DNA from: a virus
Lineage: Duplodnaviria > Heunggongvirae > Uroviricota > Caudoviricetes
DNA: 5,720 nt
Virus record (IMG/VR): IMGVR_UViG_2703718860_000012
Coordinates: 1-5,720 of that record
Reading direction: 5' to 3' (one strand)
Shown here: piece after piece, positions 1 through 5,720 of the stretch
Layout of the letters: the number at the start of each line of letters is the position of its first letter
Numbering within the stretch: the stretch's first letter is position 1
Position numbers and translations under genes: made by a program
The notes under the pieces: model-generated
The model's input: the letters and a program-made list of their open reading frames with translations, nothing else
Database searches by the model: none
Told to the model about the DNA's origin: nothing

Positions 1-900
1 GGGCGTGTCCTGCTGGAGCCTGAGCCGGAACGTTATTCATCTTTTGCCAGTGGTGCCGTTCCGGCATCATCACAACCGCTGGCGGATGATCCTGCCGTTC
101 GGGCCGTGTTCCGCCATGAGGCGGTGATCCGTCGTGCTGGTGGCGTGGAATGCCTTGAGAGCTGGTTACTTCGTGAAAAGGGCTGTCAGTGGCCTCATTC
201 CGACTGGCACAGCGAGAACATGACCACAATGCGGCACGCGCCAGGCGCAATCCGTCTGTGCTGGCACTGTGACAATCTTCTCCGTGACCAGTTCACGGAA
301 CGGCTGGAAGCAATGGCAACGGATAACTGTGCCCGCTGGGTGTTGTCTGTTGTGCGCCGTGATCTTGGTTTTGATGACAGTCACGTTGTGACAATGCCGG
401 AACTGTGCTGGTGGCTGGTTCGTAATGACCTGGCGGATGCTTTACCGGAAAGTGCAGCCCGTAAGGCCCTGAGATTACCGAAGCCTGTTGTGCCGTCTGT
501 CACCCGGGAAAGTGACCTTGTGCCTTCGGTTCCTGCCACCAGCATCATCCAGGATAAGGCGAAAAAGGTGCTGGCGCTGAAAGTGGATCCGGAGTCGCCG
601 GAGTCTTTTATGTTACGCCCAAAACGTCGCCGCTGGGTTAATGAAAAGTACACGCGCTGGGTTAAGACACAGCCGTGTGCATGTTGTGGAAAGCCTGCTG
701 ATGATCCCCACCACCTGATAGGCCACGGTCAGGGTGGTATGGGGACAAAAGCGCATGACCTTTTTGTGTTGCCGTTGTGCAGAAAACACCATGACAAACT
801 GCATGCGGATACCGTGGCATTTGAAGAGAAGTATGGTTCCCAACTGGAGCTGATATTTCGTTTTATCGATCGCGCGCTGGCGATTGGTGTGCTGTCCTGA
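1..900 (+). CDS. DUF968-family lambdoid prophage protein, 5'-partial (reading frame open from base 1; listed GTG at 106 is probably internal)
   Basis: Frame 1 has no stop from 1 to 900. C-terminal motif C-A-C-C-G-K-P...D-P-H-H-L-I-G...G-T-K-A-H-D...[12 protein letters not shown] (codons from 676) is the HNH-like Cys/His pattern recalled for DUF968 (YdfU-like) proteins, which sit just upstream of Q in lambdoid prophages. A second CxxC lies near residue 52 of the listed ORF. G+C is high, like the esterase gene. Confidence 0.7.
136..143 (+). other. Chi octamer 5'-GCTGGTGG-3'
   Basis: Exact octamer read directly at 136..143. Confidence 0.9.
407..414 (+). other. Chi octamer 5'-GCTGGTGG-3'
   Basis: Exact octamer read directly at 407..414. 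Confidence 0.9.
536..543 (-). other. Chi octamer (CCACCAGC on + strand, so GCTGGTGG on - strand)
   Basis: Exact reverse-complement octamer read directly at 536..543. Confidence 0.9.
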
Positions 901-917
901 TTTTGTGGAGAAAGTTG

Positions 918-1310
918 ATGCGTGATATTCAGATGGTTCTCGAACGCTGGGGAGCATGGGCGGCAAATAATCATGAGAATGTTAGTTGGTCGCCAATTGC
1001 TGCGGGGTTTAAAGGCCTCATCCCCTCAAAAGTAAAATTTCGACCGCAATGTTGCGATGATGATGGTCTTATCATTAGTTCAGTTATGGCTGTTCTCAAG
1101 AAAAAGGAACCATATCAATACCAATTACTGGAAATGTATTATGTATATGGGATCACATTACGAGCGTTAGGGGCGAAAATGGGGATATCGCTTAATCAAG
1201 TTGTTATTAGATTGCAGAAAGCTGAAGGGTTTGTTGAAGGGTGTCTGGCAATGCTCGAGGTATCTTTAGAAATGGATTGCTATATGAATCACGAAAATGA
1301 TTCAAGATAA
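918..1310 (+). CDS. quuD: Late-gene antitermination protein Q, short QuuD/YbcQ-type (130 aa)
   Basis: N-terminus [20 protein letters not shown]...GFKGLI...RPQCCDDD...LQKAEG matches my recollection of the E. coli DLP12 QuuD (YbcQ, ~127 aa) family. ATG at 918 is preceded by GGAG (907..910) with a 7-nt spacer; the listed TTG at 903 is less likely. Position directly after a DUF968 gene is typical. G+C is clearly lower than in flanking genes. Confidence 0.85.
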
Positions 1311-1376
1311 ATGAACAGTTACTAGTTATATTTTACAGTAATCTCCTGATGATACACGTTCAGCAGGAGGTTATTT

Positions 1377-1994
1377 ATGAATGAAAATGTAAGACACATA
1401 TTGCTGGATGCAATTGAAAATAAGAAATCTTTAACGGTAATTTACTTAGGAGGTAGTCAGCCAGGAACATTGAGAGATATATCTCCGATAAGCATATCAG
1501 AAGATAAACTTAGGGCAAGATGCCATAGTACTGATGCTGTAAAGTTTTTTAATATTGGGAAAATACAACTACCTAGTGACTCGTCCATGATAACTGTGCC
1601 ATATGGAAGTTTAGAGCTTAAAGTTTATGAGACGATGCAGAGTGTGTATGAGGACTTTCATAGCCTGTATCCGGAAGGTCGATGGGGAGTTGAATTTAAT
1701 GATCATGAATTTGCTCTATTTGATTTTTTCAAAAATGGAAAAAGAAAAAAAACAGCATTTATGGCAATTCAGTTTATGGAAAGACATGAGGATGAAACAA
1801 GAACGGAGATAACAATTGATGTCAGTCTATCAGGTGTTGTGATTTCGGAGGGAGCCAGAACACCTAAAAGACGTCCGTGGGTTGTGACTGGTCCCGGGCG
1901 TGGAGAGCTAAGAACTTATTCAACGTTAGACAAAGCTGCTACAGAGTTTTTTAAGCGACTTTCATTGATGGTATCTATGGCGATTGAAACATAA
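1377..1994 (+). CDS. Hypothetical 205-aa protein, AT-rich cargo (moron) gene of unknown function; no signal peptide or TM segment evident
   Basis: Consensus SD AGGAGG (1365..1370) lies 6 nt before ATG 1377. The ORF is uninterrupted for 618 nt in a region of roughly 35-40% G+C (counted by hand on sample 60-mers) against roughly 55-60% in the esterase gene. Many AGA/AGG Arg and ATA Ile codons, rare in E. coli, indicate horizontal origin. A terminator follows at 2084..2105. I do not recognise the protein. Confidence 0.8.
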   Translation: MNENVRHILLDAIENKKSLTVIYLGGSQPGTLRDISPISISEDKLRARCHSTDAVKFFNIGKIQLPSDSSMITVPYGSLELKVYETMQSVYEDFHSLYPEGRWGVEFNDHEFALFDFFKNGKRKKTAFMAIQFMERHEDETRTEITIDVSLSGVVISEGARTPKRRPWVVTGPGRGELRTYSTLDKAATEFFKRLSLMVSMAIET

Positions 1995-2083
1995 GGGATA
2001 TAAAGATACCGAGGAAATGATTTGTGTTATAACAAAAACCATCTTAATCTGTTAAGAGTGGTCACTCCGTCATACAGCTTAAA

Positions 2084-2105
2084 CCTGCCGCCTGGCGGGT
2101 TTTTT
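2084..2105 (+). terminator. Rho-independent terminator after the 205-aa gene
   Basis: Stem CCTGCC (2084..2089) pairs with GGCGGG (2094..2099), including one G-U, around loop GCCT, followed by TTTTTT (2100..2105). Confidence 0.65.
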
Positions 2106-2136
2106 ATGCCCAAAATCGCGTCAGTACAGTAAACAC

Positions 2137-2144
2137 GCTGGTGG
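2137..2144 (+). other. Chi octamer 5'-GCTGGTGG-3'
   Basis: Exact octamer read directly at 2137..2144. Confidence 0.9.
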
Positions 2145-2227
2145 TTGCGAATACGGGTCTTTCAGCTTGCTGGCTTTTTCGACAAGAGTTATTGGTGTGT
2201 CACGTTAACCGGAAAAGGGAAAAAGAC

Positions 2228-2425
2228 ATGCTAAAACAGCAGGATATGACAGAAACCGCCAGAGTGGTGTTTAATGAATTAAGTGCCACCGAACCGGCGA
2301 CAGTCGGGGAGATTGCGCAGAATACTTACCTTTCACGCGAACGCTGCCAGTTAATACTGACCCAGCTGGTTATGGCGGGTCTGGCAGACTATCAGTTCGG
2401 TTGTTACAGACGCCTTCCGCAGTGA
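2228..2425 (+). CDS. Small hypothetical protein (65 aa), putative winged-helix/HTH DNA-binding protein
   Basis: ATG 2228 is preceded by the purine-rich stretch AAAAGGGA (2213..2220) with a 7-nt spacer; the listed 94-aa form starts at a GTG (2141) with no SD. The segment TVGEIAQNTYLSRERCQLILTQLVMAGL looks like a helix-turn-helix with recognition helix. Its own terminator overlaps the stop codon. Confidence 0.55.
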   Translation: MLKQQDMTETARVVFNELSATEPATVGEIAQNTYLSRERCQLILTQLVMAGLADYQFGCYRRLPQ

Positions 2426-2439
2426 AGGCTTTTTTATTT
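2412..2439 (+). terminator. Rho-independent terminator overlapping the stop of the small wHTH gene
   Basis: Stem GCCTTC (2412..2417) pairs with GAAGGC (2424..2429) around loop CGCAGT, followed by TTTTTTATTT (2430..2439). Confidence 0.7.
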
Positions 2440-2453
2440 GTGGTAAATGGGCG

Positions 2454-2461
2454 GCTGGTGG
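2454..2461 (+). other. Chi octamer 5'-GCTGGTGG-3' inside a GT-rich tract
   Basis: Exact octamer at 2454..2461, followed by Chi-like GTGTGGTGGTTGTTG. Confidence 0.9.
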
Positions 2462-2757
2462 GTGTGGTGGTTGTTGCTTTCCCGTTGCTGAAAAAGAAAG
2501 CATCAGGCGATTAGCAGGGTATCAGTTACCCGTTGAAATTTTTAAATACCTCACAATTCAGGCGGTTGACTGTTGTCTGGTTTGCGGGGAGTTTGTTAAA
2601 AGAAACTGGCATGGTGAATCCCCCTGTGCGGAGGGGCAATCAGCAACTGGTGTTTTGTCACCGACCCTTATCCTTTCTGTGCGGGTTCAGGTGCTGATAC
2701 TGAACTCACCGGGAGGCACCCGGCACCATGTGCATGATGATACAGATACGCGGCTTT

Positions 2758-2784
2758 AGCCCCTCTCCGGAGGGGCTTTCTTGT
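2758..2784 (+). terminator. Rho-independent terminator in the leader upstream of nanS-p
   Basis: Perfect 8-bp stem AGCCCCTC (2758..2765) with GAGGGGCT (2770..2777), loop TCCG, then TTCTTGT. Confidence 0.65.
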
Positions 2785-2812
2785 GGGCAAAAAAAAGCCT
2801 GAGTGGGTTCGG

Positions 2813-2842
2813 GCAACAGCATGAGATATACATTTTTATAAT
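2813..2842 (+). promoter_or_regulatory. Candidate sigma70 promoter: perfect -10 TATAAT (2837..2842) with a weak -35 (GCAACA, 2813..2818, 18-bp spacer)
   Basis: Perfect TATAAT hexamer read directly; the -35 match is only 3/6. Sits ~155 bp upstream of nanS-p ATG. Could be a late (Q-responsive) promoter. Confidence 0.3.
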
Positions 2843-2869
2843 CGAATGGATTTTAACCAGAATTCATAA

Positions 2870-2894
2870 GGCTGCGCAACTGCGTGGCCTTTTT
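2870..2894 (+). terminator. Hairpin plus U5 (attenuator or early terminator) about 25-50 nt downstream of the candidate -10
   Basis: Stem GGCTGCGC (2870..2877) pairs with GCGTGGCC (2882..2889), with two G-U pairs, around loop AACT, followed by TTTTT (2890..2894). Confidence 0.45.
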
Positions 2895-2996
2895 CGTATT
2901 GCGGGCTGTAGTTTTCCTTCTGCCATTGTCCTGTAACTTCCGGACTTCAGCCCGCCCCTCATCTGACTCACAACATTATCCCGACCGGGAGGATTC

Positions 2997-4979
2997 ATGA
3001 CATTTAAACACTACGATGTGGTCAGGGCGGCGTCGCCGTCAGACCTTGCGGAGCGACTGACACAAAAACTGAAGGAGGGGTGGCAGCCATTTGGCAGCCC
3101 TGTCGCCATCACGCCTTATACCCTGATGCAGGCCATTGCGGCGGAAGGTGATGTCACCACACCTGTGGTGGTGAAGCCGTCGGATGGAGAAGGCACAGTT
3201 ATCAGCACCACCAGCGAACCGGAGTATTACTTTGTTGTTGTTCTGGCGGGGCAGTCAAACTCAATGTCTTTTGGTGAAGGGCTGCCGCTGCCGGAGACAT
3301 ATGACCGTCCGGACCCGCGTATTAAACAGCTGGCGCGTCGCAGTACGGTGACGCCGGGTGGTGCCGCCTGTAAATATAACGACATCATTCCGGCAGACCA
3401 TTGTCTGCATGATGTGCAGGACGTGAGTAATCTGAATCACCCGAAAGCAGACCTCAATAAAGGGCAGTATGGCTGTGTGGGGCATGCCCTGCATGTGGCC
3501 AAAAAACTGCTGCCGTTTATGCCTGCCCGTGCGGGGATCCTTCTTGTCCCGTGTGGACGTGGCGATTCGGGATTTACTGCGGGAGCAGAGGGCGCGTTTA
3601 ATGAGGCGTCGGGTGCGACAGCGGGCTCTTCCCTGTGGGGGGTGGATAAACCGTTGTATCGTGACCTGGTCAGCAGAACGCGTGCAGCCCTGAAGAAAAA
3701 TCCGAAAAACGTGCTGTTGTCGGTGATCTGGATGCAGGGGGAAAAAGATGTCAGTTCGGGGAGACATGCAGAGCACAATGCACTTTTTCTTGCCATGGTA
3801 AATAAATACCGTGCAGACCTGGCAGATATTGCAGACCAGTGTACTGGCGGGACAACGTCCGGCGTCCCGTGGATTTGCGGTGACACCACGTACGACTGGA
3901 AGGCGAAGTATGCAGTGCAGTATGAGGCGGTTTACGGAGGCTATAAAGGCAAGGCGGCGCAGAATATTCACTTTGTGCCGTTGATGACGGATGAGCATGG
4001 TGCGAATGTGCCGACAAACGAGCCGTCAGAAGATCCGGACATTATCACGGCGGGATACTATGGTGCCGCGTCACGCAGTAATGGTAACTGGACGACAGCC
4101 GATCGTAAAACGCACTTCAGCTCCTGGGCGCGAAGAGGCATTGTTTCAGATCGGCTGGCAGGAGAGATACTGGTGCGAGCCGGGCGTTTGCTGCCGTTCC
4201 TGAGCGGGCAGTCTGCACCGCTGGCGACCACGCCAGCCTCCACGGGGGATGCACAGTCTGGCTCTGCGGGTCAGACGCAACAGCAGGGTGCAGGTACTTC
4301 TGCAGGCGGTCATACTGAAGCCGTAACAAGAATGGTGGCCGGATATGATGCGAACAGTGGCAGTGGTGTATGGACAGAGCAGCAGTGGAATGCGTCCGGT
4401 GGTAAAGGCACTGTGACGGATGACAGTGGCAGGAAGGCGCTGCGACTGGAAAAACAGCCGGGTAAACTGACCTCCTGGAAGATGTTCCGTACTGTTGCGG
4501 TGGAGGAGGCAAAAAATCTTCTCAGTAAGGGAGGTGAAATTGCCGTGCGGTTTAAGATCCCGGAGGGTGTCGAACTGGTTAACGGTCAGTTTGTCTTTGG
4601 TCTGTACTGGCCGGTGTCGCAGTGGGCGTCAGGCGCGACAGCAAACAGCATGCTGGCGTCCTTCTTCCTTCAGACGGATGCATCAAATCTGAATCTGATG
4701 TACCACAAGGGGGAGTCGAATGCGCAACTGGGCACATTTGGGGCATTTGACCATAACTGGCATACAGTTGTTTTCCGCTTTGCGGGAAATAACAGCGAAA
4801 AAGTGGTGCCGGTGATTGATGATGCAGAGCAGTCTGCGTTTGACCTGGTGATGTGGACAAATGATGGCTTTACAGCAGATACGCTGACGCTGACAGATAT
4901 CACGGGGGCAAAAGCGACGTATCCGGTACTGCTTGATACGGTCACAGTCAAAGTTAACGAAAGCCGGGCATCATCATAA
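2997..4979 (+). CDS. nanS: Prophage-encoded sialate (9-O-acetyl-Neu5Ac) O-acetylesterase, NanS-p/YjhS-like, 660 aa
   Basis: SD GGGAGG (2987..2992) precedes ATG 2997. The SGNH/SASA esterase block VVVLAGQSNSM, with catalytic-type Ser in G-Q-S-N at 3249..3260, lies ~85 residues into the protein, consistent with the N-terminal extension I recall as DUF1737 in nanS-p. Size of ~650 aa, a Gly/Ser/Gln-rich linker and a C-terminal domain match prophage nanS-p genes, which lie between the stx slot and the lysis genes in EHEC phages. High G+C. Confidence 0.88.
   Translation: MTFKHYDVVRAASPSDLAERLTQKLKEGWQPFGSPVAITPYTLMQAIAAEGDVTTPVVVKPSDGEGTVISTTSEPEYYFVVVLAGQSNSMSFGEGLPLPETYDRPDPRIKQLARRSTVTPGGAACKYNDIIPADHCLHDVQDVSNLNHPKADLNKGQYGCVGHALHVAKKLLPFMPARAGILLVPCGRGDSGFTAGAEGAFNEASGATAGSSLWGVDKPLYRDLVSRTRAALKKNPKNVLLSVIWMQGEKDVSSGRHAEHNALFLAMVNKYRADLADIADQCTGGTTSGVPWICGDTTYDWKAKYAVQYEAVYGGYKGKAAQNIHFVPLMTDEHGANVPTNEPSEDPDIITAGYYGAASRSNGNWTTADRKTHFSSWARRGIVSDRLAGEILVRAGRLLPFLSGQSAPLATTPASTGDAQSGSAGQTQQQGAGTSAGGHTEAVTRMVAGYDANSGSGVWTEQQWNASGGKGTVTDDSGRKALRLEKQPGKLTSWKMFRTVAVEEAKNLLSKGGEIAVRFKIPEGVELVNGQFVFGLYWPVSQWASGATANSMLASFFLQTDASNLNLMYHKGESNAQLGTFGAFDHNWHTVVFRFAGNNSEKVVPVIDDAEQSAFDLVMWTNDGFTADTLTLTDITGAKATYPVLLDTVTVKVNESRASS
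3208..3215 (-). other. Chi octamer (CCACCAGC on + strand)
   Basis: Exact reverse-complement octamer read directly at 3208..3215. Confidence 0.9.
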
Positions 4980-4984
4980 CCGGC

Positions 4985-5021
4985 AAAAAAAACCGCCAGC
5001 GGCAGGAACGGAAGCTGGCGG
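4985..5021. repeat. Perfect 8-bp inverted repeat (stem-loop) with an A8 tract on its left side, 14 nt after the nanS-p stop
   Basis: CCGCCAGC (4993..5000) and GCTGGCGG (5014..5021) are exact reverse complements around a 13-nt loop, with AAAAAAAA at 4985..4992. This geometry would terminate leftward (- strand) transcripts; for + strand transcripts there is no U-tract. Confidence 0.5.
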
Positions 5022-5118
5022 AGGTAATCCCAATGGAGAATGTAAAGAAAAGATGCTTTCGTATATCGGTTTTTTAAATGAAAACAGTTCTCATTGTCAA
5101 CCATAACGGTAAGAAACT

Positions 5119-5313
5119 ATGACATTTGTTCATCAGGTGATGCTGTACTTCTGTACGGCTGTCTGTGTGCTGTATCTTCTTTCGGGTGGGTACAGGGCAG
5201 TGCGCGATTTCTGGCGCAGGCAGATTGATAAAAGGGCCGCAGAGAAAATCAGCGCCAGTCAGTCAGCCGGAGCAAAAACAGAAGCCCCACTCATTCCGGA
5301 ACAACCTTCTTAA
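5119..5313 (+). CDS. Small hypothetical single-TM membrane peptide (64 aa)
   Basis: ORF with a hydrophobic N-terminal segment (VMLYFCTAVCVLYLLSGGY) followed by a basic then polar tail; weak SD (AAGAAA). It does not overlap the next gene if that gene starts at 5339. Coding status uncertain. Confidence 0.4.
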   Translation: MTFVHQVMLYFCTAVCVLYLLSGGYRAVRDFWRRQIDKRAAEKISASQSAGAKTEAPLIPEQPS

Positions 5314-5338
5314 TAACCCCTTTCAACGAGAAAATCCT

Positions 5339-5629
5339 ATGTCAGAAATAAAATCGCTGGTCACTGCTGAGGCAGTGAAGGAAGTCCTGCGCTCTGAAGA
5401 AGTCCGGAGCGCACTGAAACAGCAACTTCGGCAGAACCTTGAGGCGCGTCTTGATGCAGAAGTGGATTCAATTCTGGATGAATTGCTTGGTGCACAGCCG
5501 GAACCATCCCCGGAACTGCTTCCGGAACCACAGGCGGAAGATGTCACCACGGAAAATGGTGATATTCAGCCGGAGCCACCGGTGACGGATATGACAGACA
5601 CACAGCCAGAATCGGGCACAATGCTGTAA
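5339..5629 (+). CDS. Hypothetical acidic protein (96 aa): helical N-terminal half, Pro/Glu-rich disordered C-terminal half
   Basis: ATG 5339 is in frame with listed ORF 5165..5629. I chose the internal start because the upstream extension overlaps the 5119 ORF and looks non-protein-like. Strong net negative charge (many E/D, few K/R). Followed by a terminator. Confidence 0.6.
   Translation: MSEIKSLVTAEAVKEVLRSEEVRSALKQQLRQNLEARLDAEVDSILDELLGAQPEPSPELLPEPQAEDVTTENGDIQPEPPVTDMTDTQPESGTML
5498..5533 (+). repeat. Three tandem imperfect 12-nt repeats (CCGGAACCATCC / CCGGAACTGCTT / CCGGAACCACAG) encoding PEPS-PELL-PEPQ
   Basis: CCGGAAC recurs at 5498, 5510 and 5522 with exact 12-nt periodicity inside the acidic-protein gene. 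Confidence 0.6.
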
Positions 5630-5639
5630 CGGCGGGGCA

Positions 5640-5673
5640 GGGCCATCAGTAAAGAGCTGGTGGCCCTTTTGTT
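5640..5673 (+). terminator. Rho-independent terminator after the acidic-protein gene
   Basis: 10-bp stem GGGCCATCAG (5640..5649) with CTGGTGGCCC (5657..5666), one G-U, loop TAAAGAG, then TTTTGTTGTTG. Confidence 0.7.
5656..5663 (+). other. Chi octamer 5'-GCTGGTGG-3' embedded in the terminator stem
   Basis: Exact octamer read directly at 5656..5663. Confidence 0.9.
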
Positions 5674-5720
5674 GTTGTGAGCTTCCGAGTACGGGAGACG
5701 GGGTATGTACCAGATGGAAA

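Follow-up and report, generated by a model that had tools for sequence, protein, structure and literature searches.

The closest described system is the lambdoid phage LLS, which lacks a recombination module and grows better with RecBCD (Zheng, Casjens, Davidson, Amundsen & Smith, 2025, Genome Res, PMC12315714). Its genome is rich in Chi, the octamer GCTGGTGG, which RecBCD meets in the active orientation when it approaches from the 3' side (PMC12315714). In the model proposed there, terminase holds the left end of the phage DNA, RecBCD enters at the free right end, and Chi converts it to a recombinase loader, aiding the formation of concatemers; 62 of the 68 enterobacterial lambdoid phages without a recombination module (Rec-less) that were identified carry at least 8 Chi in the active orientation, and transitional mosaics with Chi as passengers are discussed (PMC12315714). 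An earlier survey reportedly found a Chi excess of about 2.5-fold in lambdoid prophages without a RecBCD inhibitor (Bobay, Touchon & Rocha, 2013, PLoS Genet, PMC3784561). Here, we describe seven exact Chi octamers in a 5,720-nucleotide stretch of Caudoviricetes DNA (IMG/VR record IMGVR_UViG_2703718860_000012, positions 1 to 5,720), which is referred to in full as the window. The window is probably a slice of the right-arm Chi array of a Chi-rich, LLS-type Escherichia coli lambdoid prophage. The pattern is not new, and represents a further instance of the phenomenon published in 2013 and 2025.

The window and its relatives share with the LLS type the lambdoid gene order, exact Chi as the top octamer, a bias toward the active orientation and the clustering of Chi toward the right cohesive end site (cos). 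They also have in common a DUF968/HNH gene followed by Q, the early-left genes yfdR/yfdQ/yfdP in the closest relatives of the window, and one Chi at the Cys-Trp-Trp codons of the DUF968 gene. Our recount of LLS reproduced its 20 active and 3 inactive sites, which are densest from cro to the right end. The DNA similarity between LLS and the window is, however, confined to 327 nucleotides at 72% identity. The late region of the window is like that of Shiga toxin (Stx) phages (nanS-p, DUF1378, DUF826 and class II holin), whereas that of LLS contains a pinholin module like that of phage 21, and the left arm of the closest complete relative contains no Chi, compared with 8 in LLS. The prophages of Bobay et al (2013) resemble this one as E. 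coli lambdoid prophages with more Chi than their composition predicts, but that work gives a genome-level statistic, in which positions relative to cos and single sites are not addressed. The chi+ mutants of red gam lambda (Lam et al, 1974; Faulds et al, 1979; Kobayashi et al, 1982), as cited in PMC12315714, involve the same octamer, orientation rule and right-end entry, but there the sites are single and laboratory-selected in a naturally Chi-free phage, whereas the present sites are many and natural. Phage P1 carries 50 Chi in 94.8 kb and requires RecBCD; it differs in not being lambdoid and in its headful packaging with terminal redundancy, which results in another geometry. A literature search on Chi in Stx phages specifically found nothing relevant.

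Chi enrichment in the window

Five of the Chi octamers are on the + strand (136, 407, 2137, 2454 and 5656) and two on the - strand (536 and 3208); sites in these two orientations are called Chi+ and Chi- below. Shuffled sequences with preserved dinucleotides (n = 200) contained 0.28 Chi on average and 2 at most, compared with the 7 observed, and the mean density of E. coli (one Chi per 4.6 kb) would yield 1.24 sites, with P(>=7) = 3e-4. Of all octamers, Chi occurs most often in the window, both strand-specifically (5) and with the strands collapsed (7), while the 168 octamers of the same composition average 0.23 copies on the + strand, where Chi has 5. All GCTGGTG and CTGGTGG heptamers of the window belong to a full Chi. 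A 6th-order Markov model expects 3.1 sites, compared with 5 observed, a model that is nearly saturated by the Chi sites themselves. In lambda, we counted zero Chi on both strands.

The same comparison was made separately for coding and non-coding DNA. Shuffles that keep the proteins and their codon usage predict 0.42-0.46 coding Chi+, where 2 are observed (P~0.02), and 0.01-0.02 coding Chi-, where again 2 are observed. The 1,127 bases of non-coding DNA hold 3 Chi+, with 0.03 expected under a first-order model (Poisson P~5e-6). The non-coding DNA thus gives the strongest local signal. These results confirm that the Chi cluster is real and strongly non-random.

Chi distribution relative to cos

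The window spans the DUF968–Q–cargo–nanS-p–holin region of an E. coli lambdoid, Stx-phage-like prophage, that is, its late-regulatory and cargo region. All 5,720 bases are 100% identical to stretches in four E. coli draft assemblies (L096, L097, L100 and L102), and several further contexts match at 99.0-99.98% identity. The exact arrangement is absent from complete E. coli genomes, where the best match shows 96.6% identity over 81% of the window. The closest complete relative (L001 + L103) is a prophage of strain DETEC-S792, which is ~50 kb long, with the integrase gene at one end and a DinI-like gene at the other, and is without the 205-codon gene of the window. The close matches all belong to chromosomes or phages of E. 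coli, so the host is one whose RecBCD recognises Chi. Together, the window and its contexts display the lambdoid organisation, with repressor, cro, replication/nin genes, DUF968, Q, lysis genes, cos, terminase and head/tail genes.

Rightward of the window, all contexts continue with the lysis genes, followed by the terminase genes. A cosN identical to that of lambda (GGGCGGCGACCT, with similar flanks) is found ~195 nucleotides upstream of Nu1 in six contexts, and in the four of these that carry the window (99-100% identical) its distance from the last base of the window is 2.7-3.7 kb to the right. The Chi+ sites are located 0.8-9.5 kb to the left of cosN (0.9-9.3 kb in L096, a 100%-identical context). 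With a lambda-identical cosN on this side, the five + strand sites are oriented toward RecBCD that comes in at the right cos end. The 3'-side approach thus applies to five of the seven sites, and Chi 536 and Chi 3208 point the other way.

In the complete relative, 12 Chi+ and 4 Chi- are present, all inside the 15.4 kb from cro to the lysis genes. The 7.4 kb from cro to Q account for 8 Chi+ and 3 Chi-, and the 8.0 kb from the end of Q to the end of the lysis genes for the remaining 4 and 1, which corresponds to a right-arm density of 0.5-1.1 Chi+ per kb, several-fold the host mean. Neither orientation occurs in the early-left region (int to repressor, 9.5 kb) or in the 24.9 kb from cos/terminase to the tail fibres. 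This Chi-free structural arm serves as an internal control, as it is also encoded on the + strand and its guanine-plus-cytosine (GC) content (0.547) and skew (+0.131) are above those of the Chi-rich arm.

The contexts that are 99-100% identical to the window have 6-11 Chi+ on the left side of terS, and the 3.4-6.4 kb on its right side are free of Chi in both orientations; those that are 99.9-100% identical contain 11-13 Chi+ and 3-4 Chi- within just 13-20 kb. The latter contexts and the complete relative thus carry at least 8 active and at most 6 inactive Chi, the per-genome numbers of the LLS type, and as in that type their sites are concentrated toward the right cos end. Similar results were obtained for 51 dereplicated loci with a nanS-p relative, in which the density is 0.36 per kb for Chi+ compared with 0.16 per kb for Chi-, and Chi+ density is high from -10 kb to ~+5 kb of nanS-p and approximately zero beyond +6 kb. 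When octamers were ranked by the number of distinct 24-nucleotide contexts, which discounts shared ancestry, Chi+ came first among the 58,247 octamers of the right arm, with 101 contexts, followed by a T-run (67), and 5,054th beyond cos. A hand count revealed no clear intergenic excess of Chi+ in L001 (4 of 12) or LLS (3 of 20), so that the three non-coding Chi of the window are a local feature.

An earlier note on this DNA, made from its letters alone, had listed the seven octamers, described them as strongly enriched and stated that lambda has none, all of which agrees with our counts. It had also assumed a lambda layout and, on that assumption, an active orientation of the five + strand sites for entry at the right cos; the gene order from DUF968 through Q, cargo, nanS-p, holin and lysis genes to cosN and terminase, all rightward on the + strand, and the position of the lambda-identical cosN bear this out. 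A whole-prophage count, which the note had proposed as a test, revealed a bias in both density and orientation in the closest complete relative. Its placement of two sites in non-coding spacers needs revision, since there are three (2137, 2454 and 5656), but one of them (5656) does fall in a terminator stem.

Individual Chi sites and neighbouring genes

The features of the window are compiled below. Besides the counts of relatives that keep each site, some sites could be compared with what the similarity of their surroundings predicts or with other phages. Chi 2137 is kept in 39 of 46 relatives, with 0.41 predicted from flank identity. In LLS gp47, a Chi at 37243 is placed on the orthologous Cys-Trp-Trp codons of Chi 407, in proteins that are merely 55% identical.

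Features of the 5,720-nucleotide window, with Chi sites labelled by orientation relative to RecBCD entry at the right cos end
Feature	Position	Strand	Remarks
DUF968/HNH-like gene	1-900	+	Pfam PF06147, 2.7e-81; 5' end beyond window
Chi, active orientation	136-143	+	In DUF968, GCT GGT GG(C) = Ala-Gly-Gly; kept in 27/27 aligned relatives
Chi, active orientation	407-414	+	In DUF968, (T)GC TGG TGG = Cys-Trp-Trp; kept in 27/27 relatives
Chi, inactive orientation	536-543	-	In DUF968, Ala-Thr-Ser codons on + strand; kept in 21/27 relatives
Late antiterminator Q	918-1310	+	Pfam PF06530, 5.8e-49; called as 130-amino-acid gene in assemblies; fixes map orientation
Low-GC 205-codon gene (orf205)	1377-1994	+
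Terminator-like hairpin with T-run of orf205	~2083-2107
Chi, active orientation, non-coding	2137-2144	+	~30 nucleotides past orf205 terminator, 91 nucleotides upstream of 65-codon gene
65-codon gene	2228-2425	+	Position of lambda orf-64
Chi, active orientation, non-coding	2454-2461	+	Just past terminator-like hairpin 2412-2429; kept in 15/16 relatives
Rfam STnc100 match (gammaproteobacterial small RNA)	2580-2788	+	134.7 bits, E = 1.7e-30, full length
Sub-threshold matches to prophage anti-small RNAs of enterohaemorrhagic E. coli	2792-2844	-	AsxR 56.5 bits (gathering 63); AgvB 37 bits (gathering 56)
NanS-p-type SASA carbohydrate esterase, 660 codons	2997-4979	+	DUF1737 + SASA + DUF6645; relatives annotated SASA family carbohydrate esterase
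Chi, inactive orientation	3208-3215	-	In nanS-p, Thr-Thr-Ser codons on + strand; kept in 63/87 relatives, 0.41 expected
DUF1378	5119-5313	+
DUF826	5339-5629	+
Terminator-like hairpin with T-run	5639-5667	+	12-pair stem, -29.1 kcal/mol, z = -4.3; between DUF826 and holin gene
Chi, active orientation, non-coding	5656-5663	+	3' arm of terminator-like hairpin upstream of holin gene
Class II holin gene, start only	5705-5720	+	Shows lysis genes and cos to right

The hairpin that contains Chi 5656 is kept as a structure across the loci of ~74 relatives, with several fully compensated stem variants, and probably represents a genuine terminator or RNA element of the late operon. In most variants its 3' arm is Chi-like (ACTGGTGG, GCCGGTGG, ACTGGCGG, GCTGCTGG). 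The element looks like a terminator first, in which Chi is gained and lost through single substitutions.

Chi 2454 is the last conserved element before a variable cargo slot. Homology to 35 loci ends 1-4 nucleotides past it (2462-2465), and just two alleles follow. In the alternative allele to its right (2454-2465; 11076-11104 in L003, and similar loci), Chi forms the 5' arm of a 12-bp hairpin, GGCTGGTGGGTG ... CAC[T/C]CACCAGCC. In four of these loci (L003, L058, L061 and L062), an exact inverted Chi makes up the 3' arm and thereby creates a head-to-head Chi pair 13 nucleotides apart.

The gene orf205 has a GC content of ~0.34-0.39, compared with ~0.55 in its flanks, sits between Q and the conserved Chi 2137, carries its own Shine-Dalgarno sequence and terminator-like hairpin, and is missing from the closest complete relative and from phage PhiR5_1; it is a classic moron. 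Its protein matches PHROG 8498, a family of unknown function, shows weak similarity to WYL domains, and is recorded in exactly this form in 859 blocks of a public-assembly index. Between the 65-codon gene and nanS-p, the cargo slot further contains the STnc100-like element, and the sub-threshold AsxR and AgvB matches are antisense to it and directly downstream.

To the right of the window, the contexts differ. The window-identical 5.7 kb are joined to a lambda-type cos and Nu1/GpA in L094, L096, L098 and L099, and to an HNH and Terminase_2/TerL packaging module in L093, L097, L100 and L101. Two unrelated packaging modules beside identical DNA attest to recent mosaic exchange on this side of the window.

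Candidate explanations of the Chi array

We consider a RecBCD-directed array of the LLS type the likely explanation of the Chi sites. In the early-left operon of L001, annotation, Pfam and tblastn with lambda Exo, Bet and Gam found no Exo, Bet, Gam or other recombinase. L001 carries the yfdR/yfdQ/yfdP trio that is also found in LLS, and in the relatives that bear orf205, yfdP/yfdQ adjoin the repressor. For these reasons, the window is read as part of an LLS-type array. The biochemistry of RecBCD and Chi and the RecBCD-enhanced growth of LLS come from the literature, and by analogy we infer that this phage may use its own sites in the same way. Phages of this kind accumulate top-strand Chi from the immunity region to the right cohesive end. 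Once terminase has cut cos and holds the left end, the right end would be free; rolling-circle tails and injected linear DNA would offer other open ends. RecBCD would enter such an end, move leftward while degrading the DNA, and reach top-strand Chi from the 3' side. At one of them it would switch from destruction to RecA loading, which would limit the loss of phage DNA and start recombination, from which the concatemers required for packaging arise.

RecBCD recognises a Chi in the correct orientation in about one of three encounters. At this rate, nearly every RecBCD would be stopped by the series of five to eight sites that lies between cos and the window's left edge. The earlier note had attributed to the sites a protection of replicating or packaged DNA; the mechanism matches the one published for LLS and 62 other lambdoid phages, but packaged DNA is not a RecBCD substrate. 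Its interpretation as a whole is supported as essentially right, and it is not new.

Several observations weigh against this explanation. Two of the seven sites in the window are in the inactive orientation, and Chi in that orientation is also raised in the right arm as a whole (45 distinct contexts, rank 26 of 58,247 octamers), an excess that the right-end-entry model neither requires nor explains. Chi 407 can be explained by protein constraint, as the conserved Cys-Trp-Trp motif largely forces the octamer, and an exact Chi at 5656 is present in 25 of ~74 loci, the others carrying Chi-like variants in the covarying stem. The relatives share ancestry, so the counts of site conservation do not represent independent events. 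Moreover, the window-identical contigs end at the repressor, short of the early-left (Rec/Gam) region of their own prophage, and PhiR5_1, which encodes Exo, Bet and Gam, holds a 91%-identical copy of the late module. PhiR5_1 has no Chi between cro and Q and four in its Q-lysis module, and by analogy with the described mosaics the Chi of this Gam+ carrier may be idle passengers.

The PhiR5_1 copy leads to the first alternative, in which the sites were selected in an ancestral Rec-less phage and have since hitch-hiked, without current function here, in a mosaic Q-nanS-p-lysis module. Transitional mosaics of that sort are described by Zheng et al (PMC12315714), and the joining of the identical 5.7 kb to two different packaging modules, like the Chi-free cro-Q region beside the module in PhiR5_1, speaks for it. 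However, each 99-100%-identical context that reaches upstream has Chi-rich cro-Q DNA, with the 11-13 Chi+ in a locus of 13-20 kb noted above, and the orf205-bearing relatives carry the LLS-like yfdP/yfdQ next to the repressor. These findings suggest that the usual carrier of the module is of the Rec-less type, and we regard hitch-hiking as unlikely.

A further reading, set within the known Chi-rich right arm, assigns individual Chi at the borders of the variable cargo slots a role in modular cargo exchange, stx included. RecBCD would resect leftward from cos through non-homologous cargo, and RecA loading would be switched on at the first sequence that is common to co-resident lambdoid prophages. 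Chi 2137 is located directly to the right of the orf205 moron slot, and Chi 2454 precedes a slot that holds stx or methylase genes in relatives. The homology breakpoints cluster at ~11 places, and three of the seven Chi lie within 50 nucleotides of a cluster, compared with ~29% expected, which is not significant; with only two alleles after Chi 2454, the junction there represents a single historical event. Chi as a marker of mosaic junctions was therefore rejected, and promotion of exchange of the cargo region, which the earlier note had suggested, is reasonable in principle but gains no statistical support from the breakpoints. We consider it doubtful that Chi at slot borders drives cargo exchange. 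The two Chi at cargo-slot borders and the unexplained excess of the inactive orientation are the less ordinary leads from this analysis.

Another alternative is that the host shaped the array, with Chi accumulating in a resident, possibly cryptic prophage in the orientation of the replication fork and serving the repair of chromosomal breaks rather than the phage. This caveat is raised by Zheng et al for prophage-based surveys (PMC12315714). In the complete relative, Chi has the same orientation as in the neighbouring host flank (3 Chi+ and 0 Chi- in 15.8 kb), which at this locus alone would leave room for a host contribution, and this prophage carries IS1 and several pseudogenes. Yet a right-arm density several times the host mean overshoots what amelioration would produce, the enrichment ends sharply at cos while the other 34 kb of the same prophage are free of Chi, and the same pattern is found in the free plaque-forming phages LLS, PhiR5_1 and PhiR12. 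The sharp stop and the occurrence in free phages argue that the Chi feature belongs to the phage, which makes a host-driven origin improbable.

Finally, a by-product of composition and coding, in which G-rich + strand genes and the common CTG-GTG codon pair yield Chi without selection by RecBCD, would be consistent with the positive GC skew throughout the window, with Chi 407 and Chi 136 following the Cys-Trp-Trp and Ala-Gly-Gly motifs and with the expectation of the nearly saturated 6th-order model, but it was rejected as very improbable since the sites exceed four null models (dinucleotide shuffles, same-composition octamers, codon-preserving shuffles and the non-coding expectation), the structural arm has zero Chi despite its higher GC and stronger skew, and lambda has similar codon usage and no Chi.

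With the LLS-type array as the preferred explanation, the window enlarges the class described in 2025 by one well-resolved case, in which cosN is located and conservation is followed site by site, and opens no new question. If the cargo-border explanation were true, Chi would be a driver of modular cargo exchange, including that of stx. The region is the late-regulatory and cargo region in which Shiga-toxin phages carry stx. A dense, correctly oriented Chi array there implies that such prophages depend on host RecBCD/RecA for replication and packaging, and that they recombine readily with resident relatives, which bears on the movement of virulence cargo.

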